Positions 24,436 to 31,480 of a DNA stretch of 40,870 bases are shown here, in pieces. Each line of letters begins with the position of its first letter. Position 1 is the stretch's first letter. Position numbers and translations under genes: made by a program. Where the stretch lies: IMG/VR virus record IMGVR_UViG_2917413769_000003, positions 1-40,870 of that record. The stretch is one strand, 5' to 3'. Source of the stretch: a virus. Its lineage: Duplodnaviria; Heunggongvirae; Uroviricota; Caudoviricetes. The notes under the pieces are model-generated. The model did no database searches, had not been told where the DNA came from, and saw only the letters and a program-made list of their open reading frames with translations.

Positions 24436-24623
24436 GGAACCACCTGCCCCCACCTGGAACCACCTTTTTCTAACCTTTCCCCCAATCGACTTATATATAT
24501 ATATGGGGTTTCTAATAGAAAGGTGGTTCCAGTGGTTCCAGTAGTTCCGCACCGCTTGCCGCAAGGGCTGCGAGGTGGAACCACCTTCGCTTTTAGGTGG
24601 TTCCACGTGGTTCCAGCGGTTCC
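24436..24623. repeat. Iteron array (GGTGGTTCC / GGAACCACC, about 9 copies in both orientations) flanking a (TA)n tract; putative replication origin
   Basis: Copies at about 24436, 24456, 24522, 24532, 24574, 24596, 24607, 24615; TATATATATATAT at 24491..24504; directly 3' of the primase-helicase gene. Confidence 0.5.
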
Positions 24624-26779
24624 CAAACCTTGCATTTTTTCCCCTCAATTCGCCGTTGAGCACGCTTATAGCCGCAATTTTGCAAAACATTGCTAATTCG
24701 CATTTCTTCGCGTTTTCCGATGTGGCTGGGATTTAAACCAATCGCATCGCGCAGAACGTCGCTAGCGCGTAAAAATTCGCAATTTCGCGGAATGTCGTTA
24801 GTCATCAGGTCGGGTGTGTCGAGCCATTTCTCGACCGTTTCGAGCCACGCATCCTTAATGGTGTACTGCTCGTGGACACTCGCGCCGAGACGCTCAGCAT
24901 CGCGGAACTGGATGCCGCCGAGGCGCTTAAACGTCTCGCGAGCCTCCGCCCATAGCAAAAGGAGGTCGGTTTTTATCGCTTTCACGTCGACTTTCGACAC
25001 CTCCACGGGAAGCCAGCGACGGTTACCGGTCTTGTCTGCGAGGAATTCGTCCTCGTTGGTGGTGCCGACGAACACCAGGCGACGCGGGAACTGTGTAGCG
25101 AACTCACGATACTTAGGGATCCAGTTCTCATGTGTACGCGTCACGAATGCCTTAATGCTTTCCAGCTCTTTGGTATTGAGGCCGCGCAGCTCGCCAATCT
25201 CCGCCACCAGCCGCCCGCGCATCTTGCGTGCGAGATCGTCATCTTTCTCAGCGAAAGATATCTCGGTGAAGAATGCCGGGTCGGGGCTCAACGCCTCCAC
25301 GCCGGAGGATTTACCGCAGCCCTGAGGCCCGACGAGGATCGGCACCATATCGGCTTTGACGCCAGGCTCCAGCACCCTGCCCGCCAGCGCCGTCCACATG
25401 TACATGGACACCGCACGGGTGTATGCCGTGTCGGCAGTACCGAAGTGCGTGTGGTAGAAAGATTCGATACGCGGCACGCCGTCCCACTCCAGTCCGTTCA
25501 GCCAGGTTGTCGCGGAGTCGAAGGGCTGTTCGTCAGCGGCCAGCAGCACGACGTCGCGAATGAGCTCGCGCCCCACAGGTTTGAAGCCGCGCTTTTCCAT
25601 CGTGATGCGCAGGCGTGCATAGTCGGCATCGGTGAACGCCTGCCACTGGCCGGAGCCCGCAGAGGAAAACATGATTTCGTCGCGGAACTGGTCAAAGCGG
25701 ATATCGATGTCCACGAAGTCAGGGCGTACAACCGCTTTGGCTGCATTGCTGATGGTCGACTCGATGCGCCCCCATTTATCACGTTCGAACGCTGGCAGCG
25801 GTAACGGCTCGGCTACTTCGGTGCTGGTCAGGTCCTCGAAATCGTCGTTGCGGATCCCAATAGCATTAAGGAAATCGCCGTCGTCGCGGTGTGCGCAGCT
25901 GGCGTGCAGGCATTTGAAATGACCCTGCTCAAAGCCCGCGGTACCACCCGGGAAGTAAACCGTGCTCGTCGGGTCGCCGCCAGTACTGTGGCCGTCCTCG
26001 AACGGGCAGCGGATATAGCGCTCGCCGTTCGCACCATCCAGCAGCGTCCAGCCATTGGCGTCCAGATAATCCGCCGTCTCATCAGTAGCACCGGGCGTGA
26101 ACGTCGAACGGTCGCGCATCTTCGTACTACCCGCTTCTGTGGTGACCGACACAGGCAGCTGATCCGCCAGGCGCTGCCACAGCGTTTCGAGTTGGTCAGC
26201 AGTAATGACAGGCGGTTCATCCGGCAGATCACCGTCCCACTCAATCCGGGCGCCGCTGCTGTGTGTACCGCAGGCAACGAACTGCTGCCCATTGGCCAGC
26301 AGCTCAACGATGCCCAAATCGCCCGCCAGGCGGTGAATGCGTTTACGGAAATCGCCGTCGACAGCCAGCAGGTACAGGCATTTATTGCTGTTGGCACGCC
26401 AACGCCGCGGCGGCAGTTCGCCCAGCAACTGCACCAGCGTGTTGCGAATATCGGCCTGGATGTCTTCGTCTTCGCTGTCGCAGTCCAGCGCCAACCAGCC
26501 AAAGCCGGTGCGCACACAGATCCCGTAATCAGGCTCTCTGGACCAGCGGGCAAAGTCATGCTCAGTGACGACATGCTCGGTCCACTGAGCAATACCGGTA
26601 ACCAGGCGGTCACGGTTATAGCGGCTCGGCGTCTTGCCCAGCGCTTTCAGTTTACTGTCGGGGGAAATGGCCGCGCCCGGGTTGCACACGACCGGCAGCA
26701 GCTGGTCAGTACGACCCAGCACCAGATCGAAGTGGAACCATTCGTCAGGCGTCGCCCCCCAGTTCTTATTCTCTGGCAT
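24593..26779 (-). CDS. Bifunctional primase-polymerase (AEP) / SF3 helicase replication protein
   Basis: 728 aa; N-terminal AEP-like motifs (WLALDCD; ACGTHSSG) and C-terminal Walker A GPQGCGKSS; start 3 nt after cro stop. Confidence 0.75.
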   Translation of the reverse strand: MPENKNWGATPDEWFHFDLVLGRTDQLLPVVCNPGAAISPDSKLKALGKTPSRYNRDRLVTGIAQWTEHVVTEHDFARWSREPDYGICVRTGFGWLALDCDSEDEDIQADIRNTLVQLLGELPPRRWRANSNKCLYLLAVDGDFRKRIHRLAGDLGIVELLANGQQFVACGTHSSGARIEWDGDLPDEPPVITADQLETLWQRLADQLPVSVTTEAGSTKMRDRSTFTPGATDETADYLDANGWTLLDGANGERYIRCPFEDGHSTGGDPTSTVYFPGGTAGFEQGHFKCLHASCAHRDDGDFLNAIGIRNDDFEDLTSTEVAEPLPLPAFERDKWGRIESTISNAAKAVVRPDFVDIDIRFDQFRDEIMFSSAGSGQWQAFTDADYARLRITMEKRGFKPVGRELIRDVVLLAADEQPFDSATTWLNGLEWDGVPRIESFYHTHFGTADTAYTRAVSMYMWTALAGRVLEPGVKADMVPILVGPQGCGKSSGVEALSPDPAFFTEISFAEKDDDLARKMRGRLVAEIGELRGLNTKELESIKAFVTRTHENWIPKYREFATQFPRRLVFVGTTNEDEFLADKTGNRRWLPVEVSKVDVKAIKTDLLLLWAEARETFKRLGGIQFRDAERLGASVHEQYTIKDAWLETVEKWLDTPDLMTNDIPRNCEFLRASDVLRDAIGLNPSHIGKREEMRISNVLQNCGYKRAQRRIEGKKCKVWEPLEPRGTT

Positions 26780-26782
26780 GGG

Positions 26783-26983
26783 TTACGCCTTTTGTTTAGC
26801 CGTCTCTTCCTGAAAAAGCTTTTCTATCGCACGTACCGTAGAAAAGCGGGGGTCAGAGTGAACCCCGGTAAGAAGCCGACTAATAGAAGATTGCTTCACT
26901 CCTGCAATTTCGGCAATCTGGCTTTGGGTGTAGCCTGAGTCAATCAGGCTTTTGACCATTTCTTGGGGTGTTAGTCCGGACAT
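26783..26983 (-). CDS. Cro-like HTH (XRE family) regulator
   Basis: 66 aa, HTH (YTQSQIAEIAGVKQSSISRL), divergent from CI-like repressor; RBS GGAGA. Confidence 0.7.
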   Translation of the reverse strand: MSGLTPQEMVKSLIDSGYTQSQIAEIAGVKQSSISRLLTGVHSDPRFSTVRAIEKLFQEETAKQKA

Positions 26984-27124
26984 ATTTAAGTCTCCGCTTT
27001 TGTCTATAGAGCAAATCTATACGAAAACGGATTATTCAGCAATACAGCAATGTCATATCAATCTGGATTAAAATATCCGATAACGCATAATCACCGTCCC
27101 TGTCTTCTACATGGATGAATCCAA
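26984..27124. promoter_or_regulatory. Immunity switch region (divergent cI and cro promoters/operators)
   Basis: 141 bp AT-rich between divergent repressor genes; contains TCTATAGAGCAAATCTATA and CAGCAAT direct repeats. Confidence 0.5.
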
Positions 27125-27799
27125 ATGATTGATACCACCGATATCCTTTCTCAAAACATCAAGTACCTGATGGACAAAGCCAAGATAAGCTCGATAACCG
27201 AGCTAGCTCGTCGGTTACAACTGAATCAGCCAACATTACACAGGCTGGTATCTGGGGAAGTGAAAGACCCGAAATACGCAACGCTGAAGCAGATCGCCGA
27301 TTACTTCCGAGTGTCCCCGATTGACCTGGCGGAAAAGAGCCTTCAGGAGATGAGTAACGGAGGCGACGCCAATACAACAACCTACATATCTCTTCGATTT
27401 AATAAGGTGCCGGTCTTGGGAAATACTCAGCTTGGTGTTGGGGGACTTTGGAGCGACACTCCGTATTCGGTGGGCAGCAGCGATGGCTTCATCTACTGGC
27501 CGACAAAAGATGAAGATGCATATGCTCTGAAATGCGTTGGCGACTCAATGATGCCAAGAATTAAAGAGGGGGAATTCGTAATCGTCGAACCCAACCATGA
27601 CTACGCCCCGGGGGATGAAGTTCTTGTCGTTACGCAGGATGGTGAAGTTATGGTTAAAACTTTCCTGTTCGAGCGCGATGGTCTGTTTCACCTGATGTCC
27701 GTAAACGAAGACCACCCACCAATTAGGGTATCACGCGAAAACATCGAGAAAATCCATTACGTGGCTGGAATTGCTAAATCCGCCCTACGCATGTACTAG
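27125..27799 (+). CDS. CI-like repressor (HTH + S24 LexA-type peptidase domain)
   Basis: 224 aa; N-terminal HTH; C-terminal KCVGDSMMPRI (Ser nucleophile) and VMVKTF (Lys). Confidence 0.8.
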   Translation: MIDTTDILSQNIKYLMDKAKISSITELARRLQLNQPTLHRLVSGEVKDPKYATLKQIADYFRVSPIDLAEKSLQEMSNGGDANTTTYISLRFNKVPVLGNTQLGVGGLWSDTPYSVGSSDGFIYWPTKDEDAYALKCVGDSMMPRIKEGEFVIVEPNHDYAPGDEVLVVTQDGEVMVKTFLFERDGLFHLMSVNEDHPPIRVSRENIEKIHYVAGIAKSALRMY

Positions 27800-27829
27800 C
27801 GCCCACAGCACGACAATCCGTTTCTAACT

Positions 27830-27860
27830 AAACCGCTCAATACATGGGCGGTTTTCTTAT
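27830..27860 (+). terminator. Putative terminator downstream of cI
   Basis: AAACCGC - 11-nt loop - GCGGTTT followed by TCTTAT. Confidence 0.4.
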
Positions 27861-27883
27861 ACGCAAAATAATTCATTTTCGCA

Positions 27884-27912
27884 TTGACACAAAATCCCAT
27901 TACGCATATAAA
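27884..27912 (+). promoter_or_regulatory. Near-consensus sigma70 promoter (TTGACA - 17 nt - TATAAA) reading rightward
   Basis: -35 TTGACA at 27884..27889, 17-nt spacer, -10 TATAAA at 27907..27912. Confidence 0.55.
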
Positions 27913-28234
27913 TACGATATCGCATAAACAATGCGTTTTGTAATCGCTCTTTAACAAACTGAACCGCGTGACAGGCAAGCCGCTGTGCTCCTGGCAACAA
28001 AATAGCACCCGATGGGATCGAGGTAAGCGCCGAGTCCGTATGCGTACGGTAAGCGTAGAGGACCACACCGCGGCGAGCTGATAAGTCACGCAAGTTGAAA
28101 CGCCCCGACGATGGGGCGCTTAGTTCCCTTTGGGGTGCGGTGAATTGCAGTCCACCGAGACAAGCCGAAGCTCAGCATCGGCCACCGCACCACCAAAGTG
28201 AACTGACCAAGTGAAACTAACAGAGAGGTAAAAC

Positions 28235-28345
28235 ATGCGTTACATCAAAATCGACAAAGGTCCTAACCGTGCACAGCGTCGTAAATCACGTCACGACACG
28301 ACAGTATCAGTAACCGGGAGCAAAGACGCGCAGCACACCGGATGA
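28235..28345 (+). CDS. Small basic ORF (36 aa) with arginine-rich motif
   Basis: RBS GAGAGG; MRYIKIDKGPNRAQRRKSRHDTTVSVTGSKDAQHTG; below ORF-track size cut-off, found by manual translation. Confidence 0.3.
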   Translation: MRYIKIDKGPNRAQRRKSRHDTTVSVTGSKDAQHTG

Positions 28346-28468
28346 ACCGCCCAGAGCGGTTGGAGATGGTGAGCTCGGGCCATCTCAAACTGTGTAACTT
28401 CTTCAAAATCAGTTAACCCCAGCCGCATCCACCATCCCCTGAATCATCCATTGCTGTGTGTAGTCTTT

Positions 28469-28494
28469 GCCCGCCTCCCATGACGGGCTTTTTT
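28469..28494 (+). terminator. Rho-independent terminator
   Basis: GCCCG - 10-nt loop - CGGGC followed by TTTTTT. Confidence 0.5.
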
Positions 28495-28551
28495 ATGTCC
28501 GAAAACGCATTCAGCGCAGTGCGTTCCCCGACATGAAAAGGAGCACCTCCG

Positions 28552-28701
28552 ATGAAACCTGAACACCTCCACCGGCTGACGGGGCGCGACGTGCTCCGCT
28601 ATCGCCGCAACCACTTCGATTTAATTACCGGCCTGGCCCTCGCTACTGCGTGCGGTCTGGTTATTACCTTCATTCTCCTTGTAGCGAGGACCGCAGTATG
28701 A
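28552..28701 (+). CDS. Small membrane protein (49 aa, single TM)
   Basis: RBS AAAGGAG; [49 protein letters not shown]; stop overlaps next gene ATG (ATGA). Confidence 0.4.
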   Translation: MKPEHLHRLTGRDVLRYRRNHFDLITGLALATACGLVITFILLVARTAV

Positions 28702-29615
28702 GCTTAGAAACTAGTCTCGAACTTAACAACAAGCTGCTGACGCAGCACAACGCCCTGCTTGAACAGCTGATTACGGCACTGGCTTCAGGCCAGACAATTC
28801 AGCCGCAGACCCTCGTCACCCAGGTACAGGAATATCGCGAGACGGTACCGGACAAATCGGCCACTGATGACGAGCGGCCGGATCTGGAAACGCTGGAATT
28901 CAGCGACGTTATCGCGCTGGCATGTTTCTACCCTTTACCAGTTATGTACAGCTTCGAGATGTTCCAGCGCGCTATCGATTATCGCGATGCTGTTGGCGAC
29001 AAACGTGTGGTGCAGATCGACGCGCTGGACATGGCGCTCCAGGGTGTGAAACGCGCCAACCATCTGAGCAAGCCAGCACTGTTAGATCTGGCTCGCCACG
29101 TTATTCGCTTCTGGGATGATTTGCCGACTATTGAGTCCCGCCGCGACTTTGCCGAACGCCTGCTGGATGCGCCAGCTGCCGGACGCGACGAAGTAAAACC
29201 GAAGAAGGCCAGCGGCAAAGACAAACAGTCTGAGGAACGCACCGGGCCGTTTTACTGCAAAAGCGTAGACGGTAAGGCAGCCAGTGAGCTCCACACTTTA
29301 CGCAAACTGAATGCAATGCTGGAGAAAGGCCACGTTGAGATCAACCGGGTCGAGTACCTCCAACTGCAGGAAGAATTCGCACGTAAAGACGCAGTAAACA
29401 GCGGACAGGGTAAAGACGATGAAACGGATGATACTCCCGACTTTGCGGCACTGCGTAAACAGGCCGAAGGGCTGATTCTGCAGCTGGCGAAAGGTGGTTA
29501 CCGCGCCGAAGCCGTCGCCATTCTGGAAAAACATGGCGCCCAAAAACTTGGCGGTGTTGCTGACGAGGATCTCGCAGACGTGATCGCCCAGGCCGAAAAA
29601 GCGCTGGAGGGTTGA
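28698..29615 (+). CDS. Hypothetical phage early protein
   Basis: ORF track 28650..29615; start at ATG 28698 ([12 protein letters not shown]...) assumed. Confidence 0.5.
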
Positions 29616-29617
29616 GA

Positions 29618-30916
29618 ATGCCAGACGTTCACGCACGACTTTCCCCCTCTGCGGCGCATCGCTGGATGCGCTGCCCCGGTAGCCTGGCGCTGGAAGCCAC
29701 GCAGCCAGATAAAAGCAGCACCTTTGCGGAAGAAGGCACCGCAGCGCATGCACTCGCTGAAAAAGTGCTGCGCAACCGCCAAAGCCACCCCGAGCATTAT
29801 GCCGGGTGCAACGTCGCAATGTTCCTCGGCTCATATCCATTAAGCGAAAACCCGGATGACCAGTCCGGCCCGCAAGTGAACGAGGAAATGGTCGAGGCCG
29901 TTGGCCTTTATACCGACACGCTCTGGACGCTCGCTCAGGGCAACGAGCTGCTGGTCGAGCAGCGTGTCGACTTTTCCCACATCTTCGGCGTGCCTGATTC
30001 ATTCGGTACCGCCGATGGGGTAATCATCGCTGGCAACGAGCTGCAGATCCACGACCTCAAATACGGGAAGGGGGTTCGCGTCGACGCCGAGCAGAACGAA
30101 CAGTTGCAGCTGTACGCCCTGGGCGCGCTGGAGCAGTTCAGCATGCTGTATGACTTCGAGACGGTGCGCCTGTTCATCCACCAGCCGAGGCTTAACCACG
30201 TTTCAGAGTGGGCCCTGACGGTGGAAGAGCTCCAGGCGTTCGGCGAACGGGCGCAGGAAGCGGCGGCCAACGTGATCGTGATGTTCAACATTGCCGATTG
30301 CGAAGGCGTCGAAACGCTGCCGCTGGAAAACTTCACTCCAGGCGAAAAACAGTGTCGGTTCTGCAAGGCTAGTGCCATCTGCACCGCCCGGGAACAACTG
30401 CACATCAGTACCATCGCGGGGGATTTCGACGACATAACGCAGTCCGTTGGCGATCTGCTGGCTGACTCAATCGCGCGGGTACCGCTACTAACCGTTGAAC
30501 AGCTGGCAGAGGTATACAGCCAGGCGGACTTTATCGAATCCTGGCTAAAGGCCGTGCGCGACCGGGTGAACAGTGAGCTGAACGCCGGGCATCAGGTTCC
30601 GGGCTTTAAGCTGGTCACCGGCAAGCTGGGTAACCGCGCCTGGAGCAACGAAGCAGAAGCAGAAGAGCTGCTGAAATCCTTCAGGCTGAAACAGGAACAG
30701 ATGTACAGCATGAAAGTAATCAGCCCGACGCAGGCCGAGAAGTTGCTTAAGAAAGAAAGTCCGCGCCGCTGGACAAAAGCCGAAGCCCTGATCACCCGCG
30801 CTGACGGTAAACCCACCGTCGCCCCTGAATCTGACCCGCGCCCTGCGCTCAATATCAACCCTGTTAACGATTTCGACGACGTGTCCGACGACGCGCTCGC
30901 CGCAGACCTCATCTGA
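29618..30916 (+). CDS. PD-(D/E)XK family nuclease (DUF2800, Cas4/RecB-like) with C-terminal Cys cluster
   Basis: ORF track starts at TTG 29612; ATG 29618 with GGAGGG RBS; N-terminal [14 protein letters not shown] and [10 protein letters not shown] cluster. Confidence 0.65.
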
Positions 30917-30931
30917 TTAAGGAACAACTCC

Positions 30932-31480
30932 ATGAAAATTAAACTGAACAACGTCCGTCTGGCCTTCCCTGCTCTGTTCGAAGCAAAAACCGTGAATGGC
31001 GAAGGCGACCCGCGCTTCTCTGCTGTTTTCCTAATGGATCCGAAGCACCCGCAGCTGGACGAAGTCCGCAAAGCGCTGAAGCAGGTGGCGAAGGAAAAAT
31101 GGGGTGAGAAATGGGAAACCATTTACAACCAGCTGGAGAAAAAGCTCAACCTCTGCCTGCATGACGGTGACGAGAAAGCCGAATACGAAGGCTTCCCGGG
31201 CAACTTCTTCCTGAATGCTGCCAACAAAGCGCGCCCGGCAGTCATCGATCGCGACCGTTCTCCCCTCATCCAGGCTGATGGCCGTCCTTACGCCGGTTGC
31301 TACGTCAACGCGGTGATCGACATCTGGGCGCAGGACAACAACTTCGGCAAACGTGTTAACGCATCGCTGGGCGGCGTCCAGTTCCTGCGCGACGGTGACG
31401 CGTTCGCTGGCGGTGGTGTTGCCGCTCCGGACGACTTCGACGACATCAGCGAAGGCGCAGACGCGGGCGAGCTGATTTAA
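30932..31480 (+). CDS. Phage ssDNA-binding protein (DUF2815-like)
   Basis: 182 aa; follows DUF2800-like gene as in the common DUF2800/DUF2815/PolA phage module; acidic C-terminal tail (DDFDDISEGADAGELI). Confidence 0.6.
   Translation: MKIKLNNVRLAFPALFEAKTVNGEGDPRFSAVFLMDPKHPQLDEVRKALKQVAKEKWGEKWETIYNQLEKKLNLCLHDGDEKAEYEGFPGNFFLNAANKARPAVIDRDRSPLIQADGRPYAGCYVNAVIDIWAQDNNFGKRVNASLGGVQFLRDGDAFAGGGVAAPDDFDDISEGADAGELI

Follow-up and report, generated by a model that had tools for sequence, protein, structure and literature searches.

Does a 36-codon open reading frame (ORF) with an arginine-rich stretch, lying in the leader of a phage early operon, encode a micro-protein, a truncated antiterminator of the lambdoid N type, or nothing at all? 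The initial annotation of this locus offered these three readings side by side. Here we examine them within the window, by which we mean the whole stretch of 40,870 nucleotides analyzed (IMG/VR virus record IMGVR_UViG_2917413769_000003), and find that the ORF very likely makes up the 5′ portion of an early, accessory phage gene, whose 58-residue product is very basic and predicted to be helical, and which has been frameshifted by a duplication of the pentamer CACGA. Seen this way, the locus is almost certainly a disrupted allele, or pseudogene, of a real gene.

The window is the genome of a temperate phage, and its regulatory region is laid out in Table 1. After the promoter-like site, the order is leader, ORF, a hairpin with a T-run (28469-28494), a 49-aa ORF, and then the early genes, which encode a DUF2800 nuclease, a DUF2815 single-stranded DNA-binding protein, and PolA; a Q-type antiterminator gene (PF06530) lies on the opposite side. 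Related prophages occur in 132 of 5426 complete E. coli genomes, and four isolated phages match too, for example vB_EcoM-606R2 (L001). In every relative the first gene beyond the terminator is the 49-aa ORF (28552-28701, + strand), annotated there as hypothetical; it is membrane-like, with a hydrophobic C-terminal segment (26 residues), and it has no Pfam match.

Table 1. Features of the window at and around the 36-aa ORF.
Feature	Position	Strand	Remarks
Prim-Pol/VapE primase	24593-26779	-	
cro-like HTH gene	26783-26983	-	
LexA/S24-type repressor	27125-27799	+	divergent
Promoter-like TTGACA / 17 nt / TATAAA	27884-27889 / 27907-27912	+	read directly
Exact rrn-type boxA GCTCTTTAACAA	27946-27957	+	about 35 nt 3′ of the promoter-like site
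Long hairpin	28123-28203	+	directly 5′ of the gene; left edge of the variable slot
GAGAGG, Shine-Dalgarno-like	28223-28228	+	6 nt 5′ of the ATG; read directly
36-aa ORF as now read	28235-28345	+	ATG, 21 native and 15 out-of-frame residues, TGA
Whole disrupted gene	28235-28416	+	58-codon family member plus 5-bp duplication; 182 nt including TAA 28414-28416
Tandem duplication CACGA-CACGA, the frameshifting lesion	28292-28301	+	adjoins the pre-existing CACGT
Out-of-frame remnant MNRPERLEMVSSGHLKLCNFFKIS, then stop	28342-28416	+	most conserved, C-terminal half of the family
RprA-like module	28395-28498	+	possible seed region and rho-independent terminator; bounds the variable slot on the right; would serve the gene as its 3′ UTR

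The ORF, with its ATG, its GAGAGG ribosome-binding site and its arginine-rich stretch, is present exactly as first described, and its product reads MRYIKIDKGPNRAQRRKSRHDTTVSVTGSKDAQHTG. A bare frame of this size is within chance expectation, as the window holds 357 ORFs of at least 36 aa on its two strands, and 57 of at least 25 aa overlap positions 26000-31000. It is homology that lifts the ORF above chance. A distant DNA search matched its start to a 58-aa coding sequence of the N4-like Salmonella phage vB_SalP_TR2, with 80% DNA identity over 61 nt. The TR2 product (QSJ04038, a hypothetical protein) is MRYIKMNKGPNRSERRAASRHARRMEKTNKNSKRMNRPERMDTVNAGYEKTMNFFFPA, and its C-terminus matches the other frame of the window directly after the stop codon of the ORF. 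A purine-rich sequence stands at an equal distance from the start in TR2 and in three further homologues (L006, L008 and L009).

The two frames meet at a run of pentamers, CACGT (28287-28291), CACGA (28292-28296) and CACGA (28297-28301). Deleting one CACGA copy, at 28297-28301, yields a 58-aa protein, MRYIKIDKGPNRAQRRKSRHDSISNREQRRAAHRMNRPERLEMVSSGHLKLCNFFKIS, and the simplest reading of the lesion is that a duplication arose recently at a short direct repeat and inactivated the gene. The initial annotation had estimated that a change of frame would add about 25 aa, and this holds: from 28342 the other frame runs for 24 further codons before its stop, and an intact 58-aa allele exists in a related prophage, as described below. 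The core of the C-terminal half, HRMNRPE..G..K..FF, is thus still encoded at 28339-28416, out of frame with the 36-aa ORF. Programmed − 1 frameshifting was considered and ruled out, as no slippery heptamer of the form X XXY YYZ lies in frame within the ORF and the intact allele is read without recoding.

Searched against 5.8 billion proteins, the repaired window protein returned a 58-aa match, P0001, that differs from it in a single residue, D7N (98% identity in a full-length alignment, and 45-47% to the TR2 protein). The same search gave nine more relatives, 58-86 aa in length, and also P0011, identical to the product of the 36-aa ORF and called on two Logan contigs. The gene for P0001 lies in L003, a prophage with 94% identity to the window, where it likewise sits between leader and terminator and has matching neighbors (repressor, leader, gene, terminator and a 48/49-aa ORF). 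In a DNA alignment, the window has exactly five extra bases relative to L003, and so do L004 and L005, two contigs that were assembled from other sequencing runs (SRR6148301 and SRR8835199) and are 99.99-100% identical to the window. Since these three sequences are nearly identical, the duplication represents one event in one lineage.

Small genes often look frameshifted through error, and L004 itself differs from the window by one indel elsewhere, so that the lesion might be a sequencing or assembly artefact that hides an intact 58-codon gene in the true sequence. We hold this to be extremely unlikely, because the lesion is a clean 5-bp tandem duplication rather than a homopolymer slip, and because the same duplication is reproduced in the contigs from the two other runs, which excludes an assembly error. 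The indel of L004 falls in the DUF2800/PD-(D/E)XK nuclease gene, which in the window is one 434-aa ORF (29612-30916, + strand) and in L004 (6289-7586) is split into parts of 309 aa and 116 aa; it is the only indel between the two over 11 kb, which are otherwise 99.99% identical.

The comparison with L003 also reveals how this stretch has evolved. With the window sequence repaired, the 58-aa frame shows seven synonymous differences and one non-synonymous difference (pS 0.194, pN 0.007, pN/pS 0.04), and the other two frames have no such synonymous bias. Downstream of the lesion, all six differences from L003 are synonymous in the 58-aa frame. Among distant homologues pN/pS is 0.12-0.26, with synonymous sites near saturation. 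Judged by these substitution patterns, the 58-aa frame is under purifying selection and belongs to a real gene. A chance ORF in a non-coding leader, the last of the three original readings, could have been argued from the many frames of similar size in the window and from the lack of conservation of the other small leader ORFs, but homologues in at least five phage types are under purifying selection, which refutes it; its probability is vanishingly small.

The protein family to which the gene belongs is strongly conserved. Residues 1-21 of the ORF, the arginine-rich stretch included, match the family and are identical to P0001 except at position 7; the invariant residues of this part are Y3, G9, R12, R15, R16, K17, S18, H20 and D21, and in the C-terminal half HRMNRPE..G..K..FF is invariant. 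The other members found are 49-72 aa long, apart from one 86-aa call (P0005) that has an upstream extension. Held against the family, the ORF as it now reads has the N-terminal invariants and the coding type of evolution, and it lacks the in-frame C-terminal core and a length of 49-72 aa. With the frame shifted after codon 21, 15 of 24 invariant family positions are lost, among them HRMNRPE, G47, K50 and F54-F55, and because of this loss the 36-aa peptide is most likely inactive.

These facts also bear on the reading as a functional micro-protein, or, in a related form, on the idea that the CACGN repeat acts as a reversible switch, or as a site of recoding, through which the locus alternates between products of 36 aa and 58 aa. 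Such a peptide would have a good ribosome-binding site and ATG and would retain the conserved 21 N-terminal residues, the three near-identical pentamers CACGT, CACGA and CACGA could slip again, and the allele persists in three assemblies. These assemblies, however, are of one lineage, the C-terminal core that the peptide lacks is invariant among the full-length members, the 15-residue out-of-frame tail found no homologue in a protein search, and there is no slippery heptamer. Known contingency loci have far more repeats than three imperfect pentamers. A micro-protein or a switch is therefore clearly improbable, although the truncated peptide keeps the conserved arginine-rich N-terminal segment and may have residual activity.

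Our preferred reading, a broken member of a 58-aa family, raises the question of what the intact protein is. The intact protein has a pI of 11.6, with 16 lysines and arginines against five aspartates and glutamates, and AlphaFold2 models it, with moderate confidence (mean pLDDT 73), as three helices. Among the PHROGs, the repaired protein hits 13305, 27236 and 35232 (E values from 3e-6 to 2e-4), all of which are classed as function-unknown; the 36-aa ORF matches no PHROG. Pfam, NCBIfam and PADLOC hold no family for the protein, a sequence profile search of the PDB returned only noise (E>0.6), and a Foldseek search of the model against the PDB and BFVD found only an uncharacterised homologue in Klebsiella phage Pylas (E 0.08).

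The family is also rare. A profile search of 1.8 billion representative proteins gave 11 clusters at E<=0.001, most of them small, basic and unannotated, and three of them longer proteins matched over short stretches only. IMG/VR holds two loci, and no family member was found among the GTDB species representatives. In all, 18 phage records carry the family, every one labelled hypothetical or left unannotated, and the homologues are spread over at least five phage types, among them lambdoid phages, where the gene is part of pL operons, and the lytic N4-like phages (Schitoviridae), where it sits beside tRNA genes. In TR2 some 20 nt separate a tRNA-like sequence from the start of the 58-aa gene. 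The homologue is not annotated as a coding sequence in the N4-like Salmonella records KC139520/NC_021782 (FSL SP-076), KC139517/NC_021772 (FSL SP-058) and OM908766 (S5), and its place there bears tRNA gene labels or nothing.

We now turn to the RNA that precedes the gene. The leader is about 290-300 nt long and strongly structured (27921-28234; minimum free energy − 116 kcal/mol, z − 4.6 against shuffled controls), and it is conserved at about 89%, unannotated, in more than 100 E. coli prophages. Its boxA has no second exact copy in the window and is conserved among relatives; on the cro/primase side there is no exact boxA, and the other matches in the window carry two mismatches and are within chance expectation. 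A short hairpin, CGCCCC-GACGAT-GGGGCG, follows at 28101-28118, and then the long hairpin, in which eight of 28 pairs show compensatory changes across five sequences. This long hairpin is about 84% identical to an unannotated segment, running from PL/boxB to the N-like gene, in Salmonella phage epsilon34, g341c, SPN9CC and other P22-like phages. Its counterparts lie at 1501-1572 in epsilon34 (L014), between a putative PL/boxB-like hairpin and the N-like gene gp43, and at 5878-5962 in a Pantoea lambdoid prophage (L008); it may correspond to the RNase III-sensitive hairpin of the lambda N leader. The motif CCAAAGTG is found just 3′ of the boxB-like hairpins in both nutL and nutR of the Pantoea prophage (5842-5885, and 3660-3700 on the − strand), after the boxB-like hairpin of epsilon34 (1470-1500), and at the 3′ foot of the long hairpin of the window (28190-28203). 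The leader is possibly a cis-acting leader for processive antitermination.

A second kind of leader RNA takes the same place in one relative. L010 (E. coli Sx181-0-1, NZ_CP078137) is a window-type prophage with a different immunity region, in which a sequence like HK022 putL replaces the boxA leader (about 2290-2370) before the same hairpin and terminator. The leader of L006 (5130-5203) is 93% identical to HK022 putL, which is also annotated in HK75, O276 and HK639, and no N gene was recognised in L006 beside this HK022-type RNA. Rfam searches at gathering thresholds reported nothing in the window, L006, L008 or L010. The putL-like RNA of L010 suggests that any antitermination in the phage type of the window would be RNA-based and cis-acting.

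It was because the leader has this nutL-like anatomy that an N-like function deserved a test, and the positional intuition behind the initial annotation was a reasonable one. On this reading, the arginine-rich N-terminus of a truncated N-like antiterminator would bind a leader hairpin and, with boxA and Nus factors, bring about read-through of the terminator at 28469 into the early genes. The exact boxA, the short hairpin and the long hairpin homologous to the epsilon34 segment all speak in its favor, as do the position of the gene as the first ORF after the hairpin with the terminator next (in L003 as in the window), the conservation of the arginine-rich segment in the family, and the lack of any other N candidate: no N homologue was recognised anywhere in the phage type of the window. 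Two leader ORFs that might have been a hidden N, a 37-aa frame starting with GTG at 27968 and a 39-aa frame starting with TTG at 28095, were rejected, as they are not conserved as ORFs in L001.

The sequence of the protein itself argues against N. Neither the 36-aa ORF, the repaired 58-aa protein nor the TR2 protein matches the Pfam N families at E<=10, and BLASTP against the N protein of L009, a genuine N that scores 53 bits on PF25694, gave no alignment at E<=100. Genuine N genes in fact stand beside the 58-aa gene in three lambdoid loci, in the order N, DUF7167, 58-aa gene in L009, and nutL, hairpin, 58-aa gene, N in L008 and L015. A clear nutL/nutR pair is present in L008; the window has its one exact boxA and no second nut-like site. 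The gene occurs in lytic N4-like phages, it is missing from relatives that keep the boxA leader, the terminator and the early genes, including the isolated phage 606R2, and in the lineage of the window it is broken; the putL-like RNA of L010 likewise counts against an N-like role. We therefore judge it highly probable that the gene is not an N analogue, and very improbable that it is a truncated one. The word "truncated" was nevertheless well chosen, given the 5-bp duplication relative to the 58-aa allele of L003; it is the likeness to N that fails.

The terminator downstream has an identity of its own. The initial annotation placed a terminator at 28469, which our terminator scan did not report since its loop exceeds the limit of the scan, but which is supported instead by homology to the terminator of RprA. 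The Rfam model of this small RNA (RF00034) aligns to 28395-28498 with 56.4 bits and an E value of 1.8e-6, below the gathering score of 70, and 45 nt of it (28450-28494) share 91% identity with the 3′ part of chromosomal rprA, terminator included, in 5424 of 5426 E. coli genomes. On this sequence evidence, the terminator is the 3′ part of an RprA-like small RNA module. Its core ATTGCTGTGTGTAGTCTTTGCCC and its terminator are kept in relatives that do not have the small gene, some of which also retain ATCCCCTGA. That the 58-aa gene and the module might be linked was considered and rejected, as each is found apart from the other: L001, L010 and L011 have the module but not the gene, and L006, L008, L009 and TR2 have the gene but not the module. 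The module could yield a 3′-end fragment of the early leader transcript that mimics RprA; no account of an RprA homologue in a prophage came up in the literature searched.

Between the long hairpin and this module lies a hypervariable slot (28205-28430), which holds the 58-aa gene in the window and in L003. The slot sequence has no DNA match in the 5426 complete E. coli genomes, of which more than 100 contain the flanking leader and 73 the phage-type terminator module. Other contents are found in relatives that keep equivalent surroundings and from which the 58-aa gene is absent: a 69-aa ORF in L011 (2397-2606), a 33-aa acidic ORF with its own GAGGA site in L010 (2415-2516), and a reverse-strand gene of 174/189 aa in L012 and L001, the slot of 606R2 having no forward ORF. 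The 58-aa gene is accessory, and dispensable within the phage type of the window.

Taken together, these observations fit a gene that would be moron-like cargo with its own ribosome-binding site. Upon induction, the repressor-controlled early promoter would transcribe the leader along with the cassette, and ribosomes would start at the good binding site; in the lineage of the window they would then make the 36-aa peptide of native and foreign residues, probably an inert product. For the intact protein, the most likely activity is binding, through its arginine-rich helices, to a nucleic acid (RNA being the probable one) or to an acidic or otherwise polyanionic host target, and this accessory role would be directed at the host. 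We place low confidence in this binding, which we propose from composition and predicted helices; the arginine-rich segment may bind RNA. The 58-aa protein would play no part in read-through of the 28469 terminator, and any such read-through would more plausibly depend on cis-acting leader RNA, that is, boxA and structured RNA here and putL-like RNA in one relative.

A bolder possibility is that the intact family forms a new class of arginine-rich RNA-binding early proteins that act on the adjacent N-leader or nut-type RNA. The context invites the thought, since the gene follows an epsilon34-type hairpin in the window, L003 and L008 and stands between nutL and N in L008 and L015, but we consider it unlikely. 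If it were true, the protein might tune antitermination or the way in which the leader is translated or processed; in the phage type of the window it might affect the release of the RprA-like 3′ fragment from its own 3′ UTR; and the window would hold a natural loss-of-function allele of that regulator.

Under the reading that we prefer, as a disrupted cargo gene, the finding itself is an ordinary one, the decay of an uncharacterised small phage gene into a pseudogene. Its family is rare, strongly conserved, and common to lambdoid, N4-like and primase/PolA-type phages, and L003 and the window provide a natural pair of intact and broken alleles for functional tests. In annotation, the locus is best entered as a pseudogene, the frameshifted form of a gene for a small hypothetical phage protein; neither "36-aa micro-protein" nor "N homologue" is an apt label. 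More is to be gained from what surrounds it, a cargo slot between an RNA resembling nutL and the N leader on one side and a phage copy of the 3′ part of RprA on the other.

How, then, does this gene compare with known systems? Set beside P0001, the TR2 protein QSJ04038 and PHROGs 27236, 13305 and 35232, the repaired window gene is the same in length (58 aa), in invariant residues and in the spacing of its ribosome-binding site; unlike them, the allele in the window is frameshifted after codon 21 and is without the conserved C-terminal half. Like lambda N, P22 gp24 and the N proteins of H-19B and epsilon34 (PF25694, N_peptide), its product is small, basic and arginine-rich near the N-terminus, and like lambdoid N it is encoded early, 3′ of a boxA and an epsilon34-type hairpin and 5′ of a terminator. 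It differs from lambdoid N in having no sequence similarity, half the usual length, and no counterpart of the C-terminal region of N, and also in that it coexists with genuine N, is dispensable in its own phage type, and is present in lytic N4-like phages.

The moron-like class of lambdoid pL operons includes ral, kil and other small, non-essential early genes. As with these moron-type lambdoid genes, the 58-aa gene is a short, self-contained cassette with its own ribosome-binding site, often flanked by terminators (L009 and L006), at a hypervariable position; close relatives may have it or not, and it is exchanged between phage types that are not related. Unlike moron-type genes it has no evident promoter of its own, and unlike the lambdoid ones it lies here inside the early-operon leader of a non-lambdoid phage, one with primase/VapE, DUF2800, DUF2815 and PolA.
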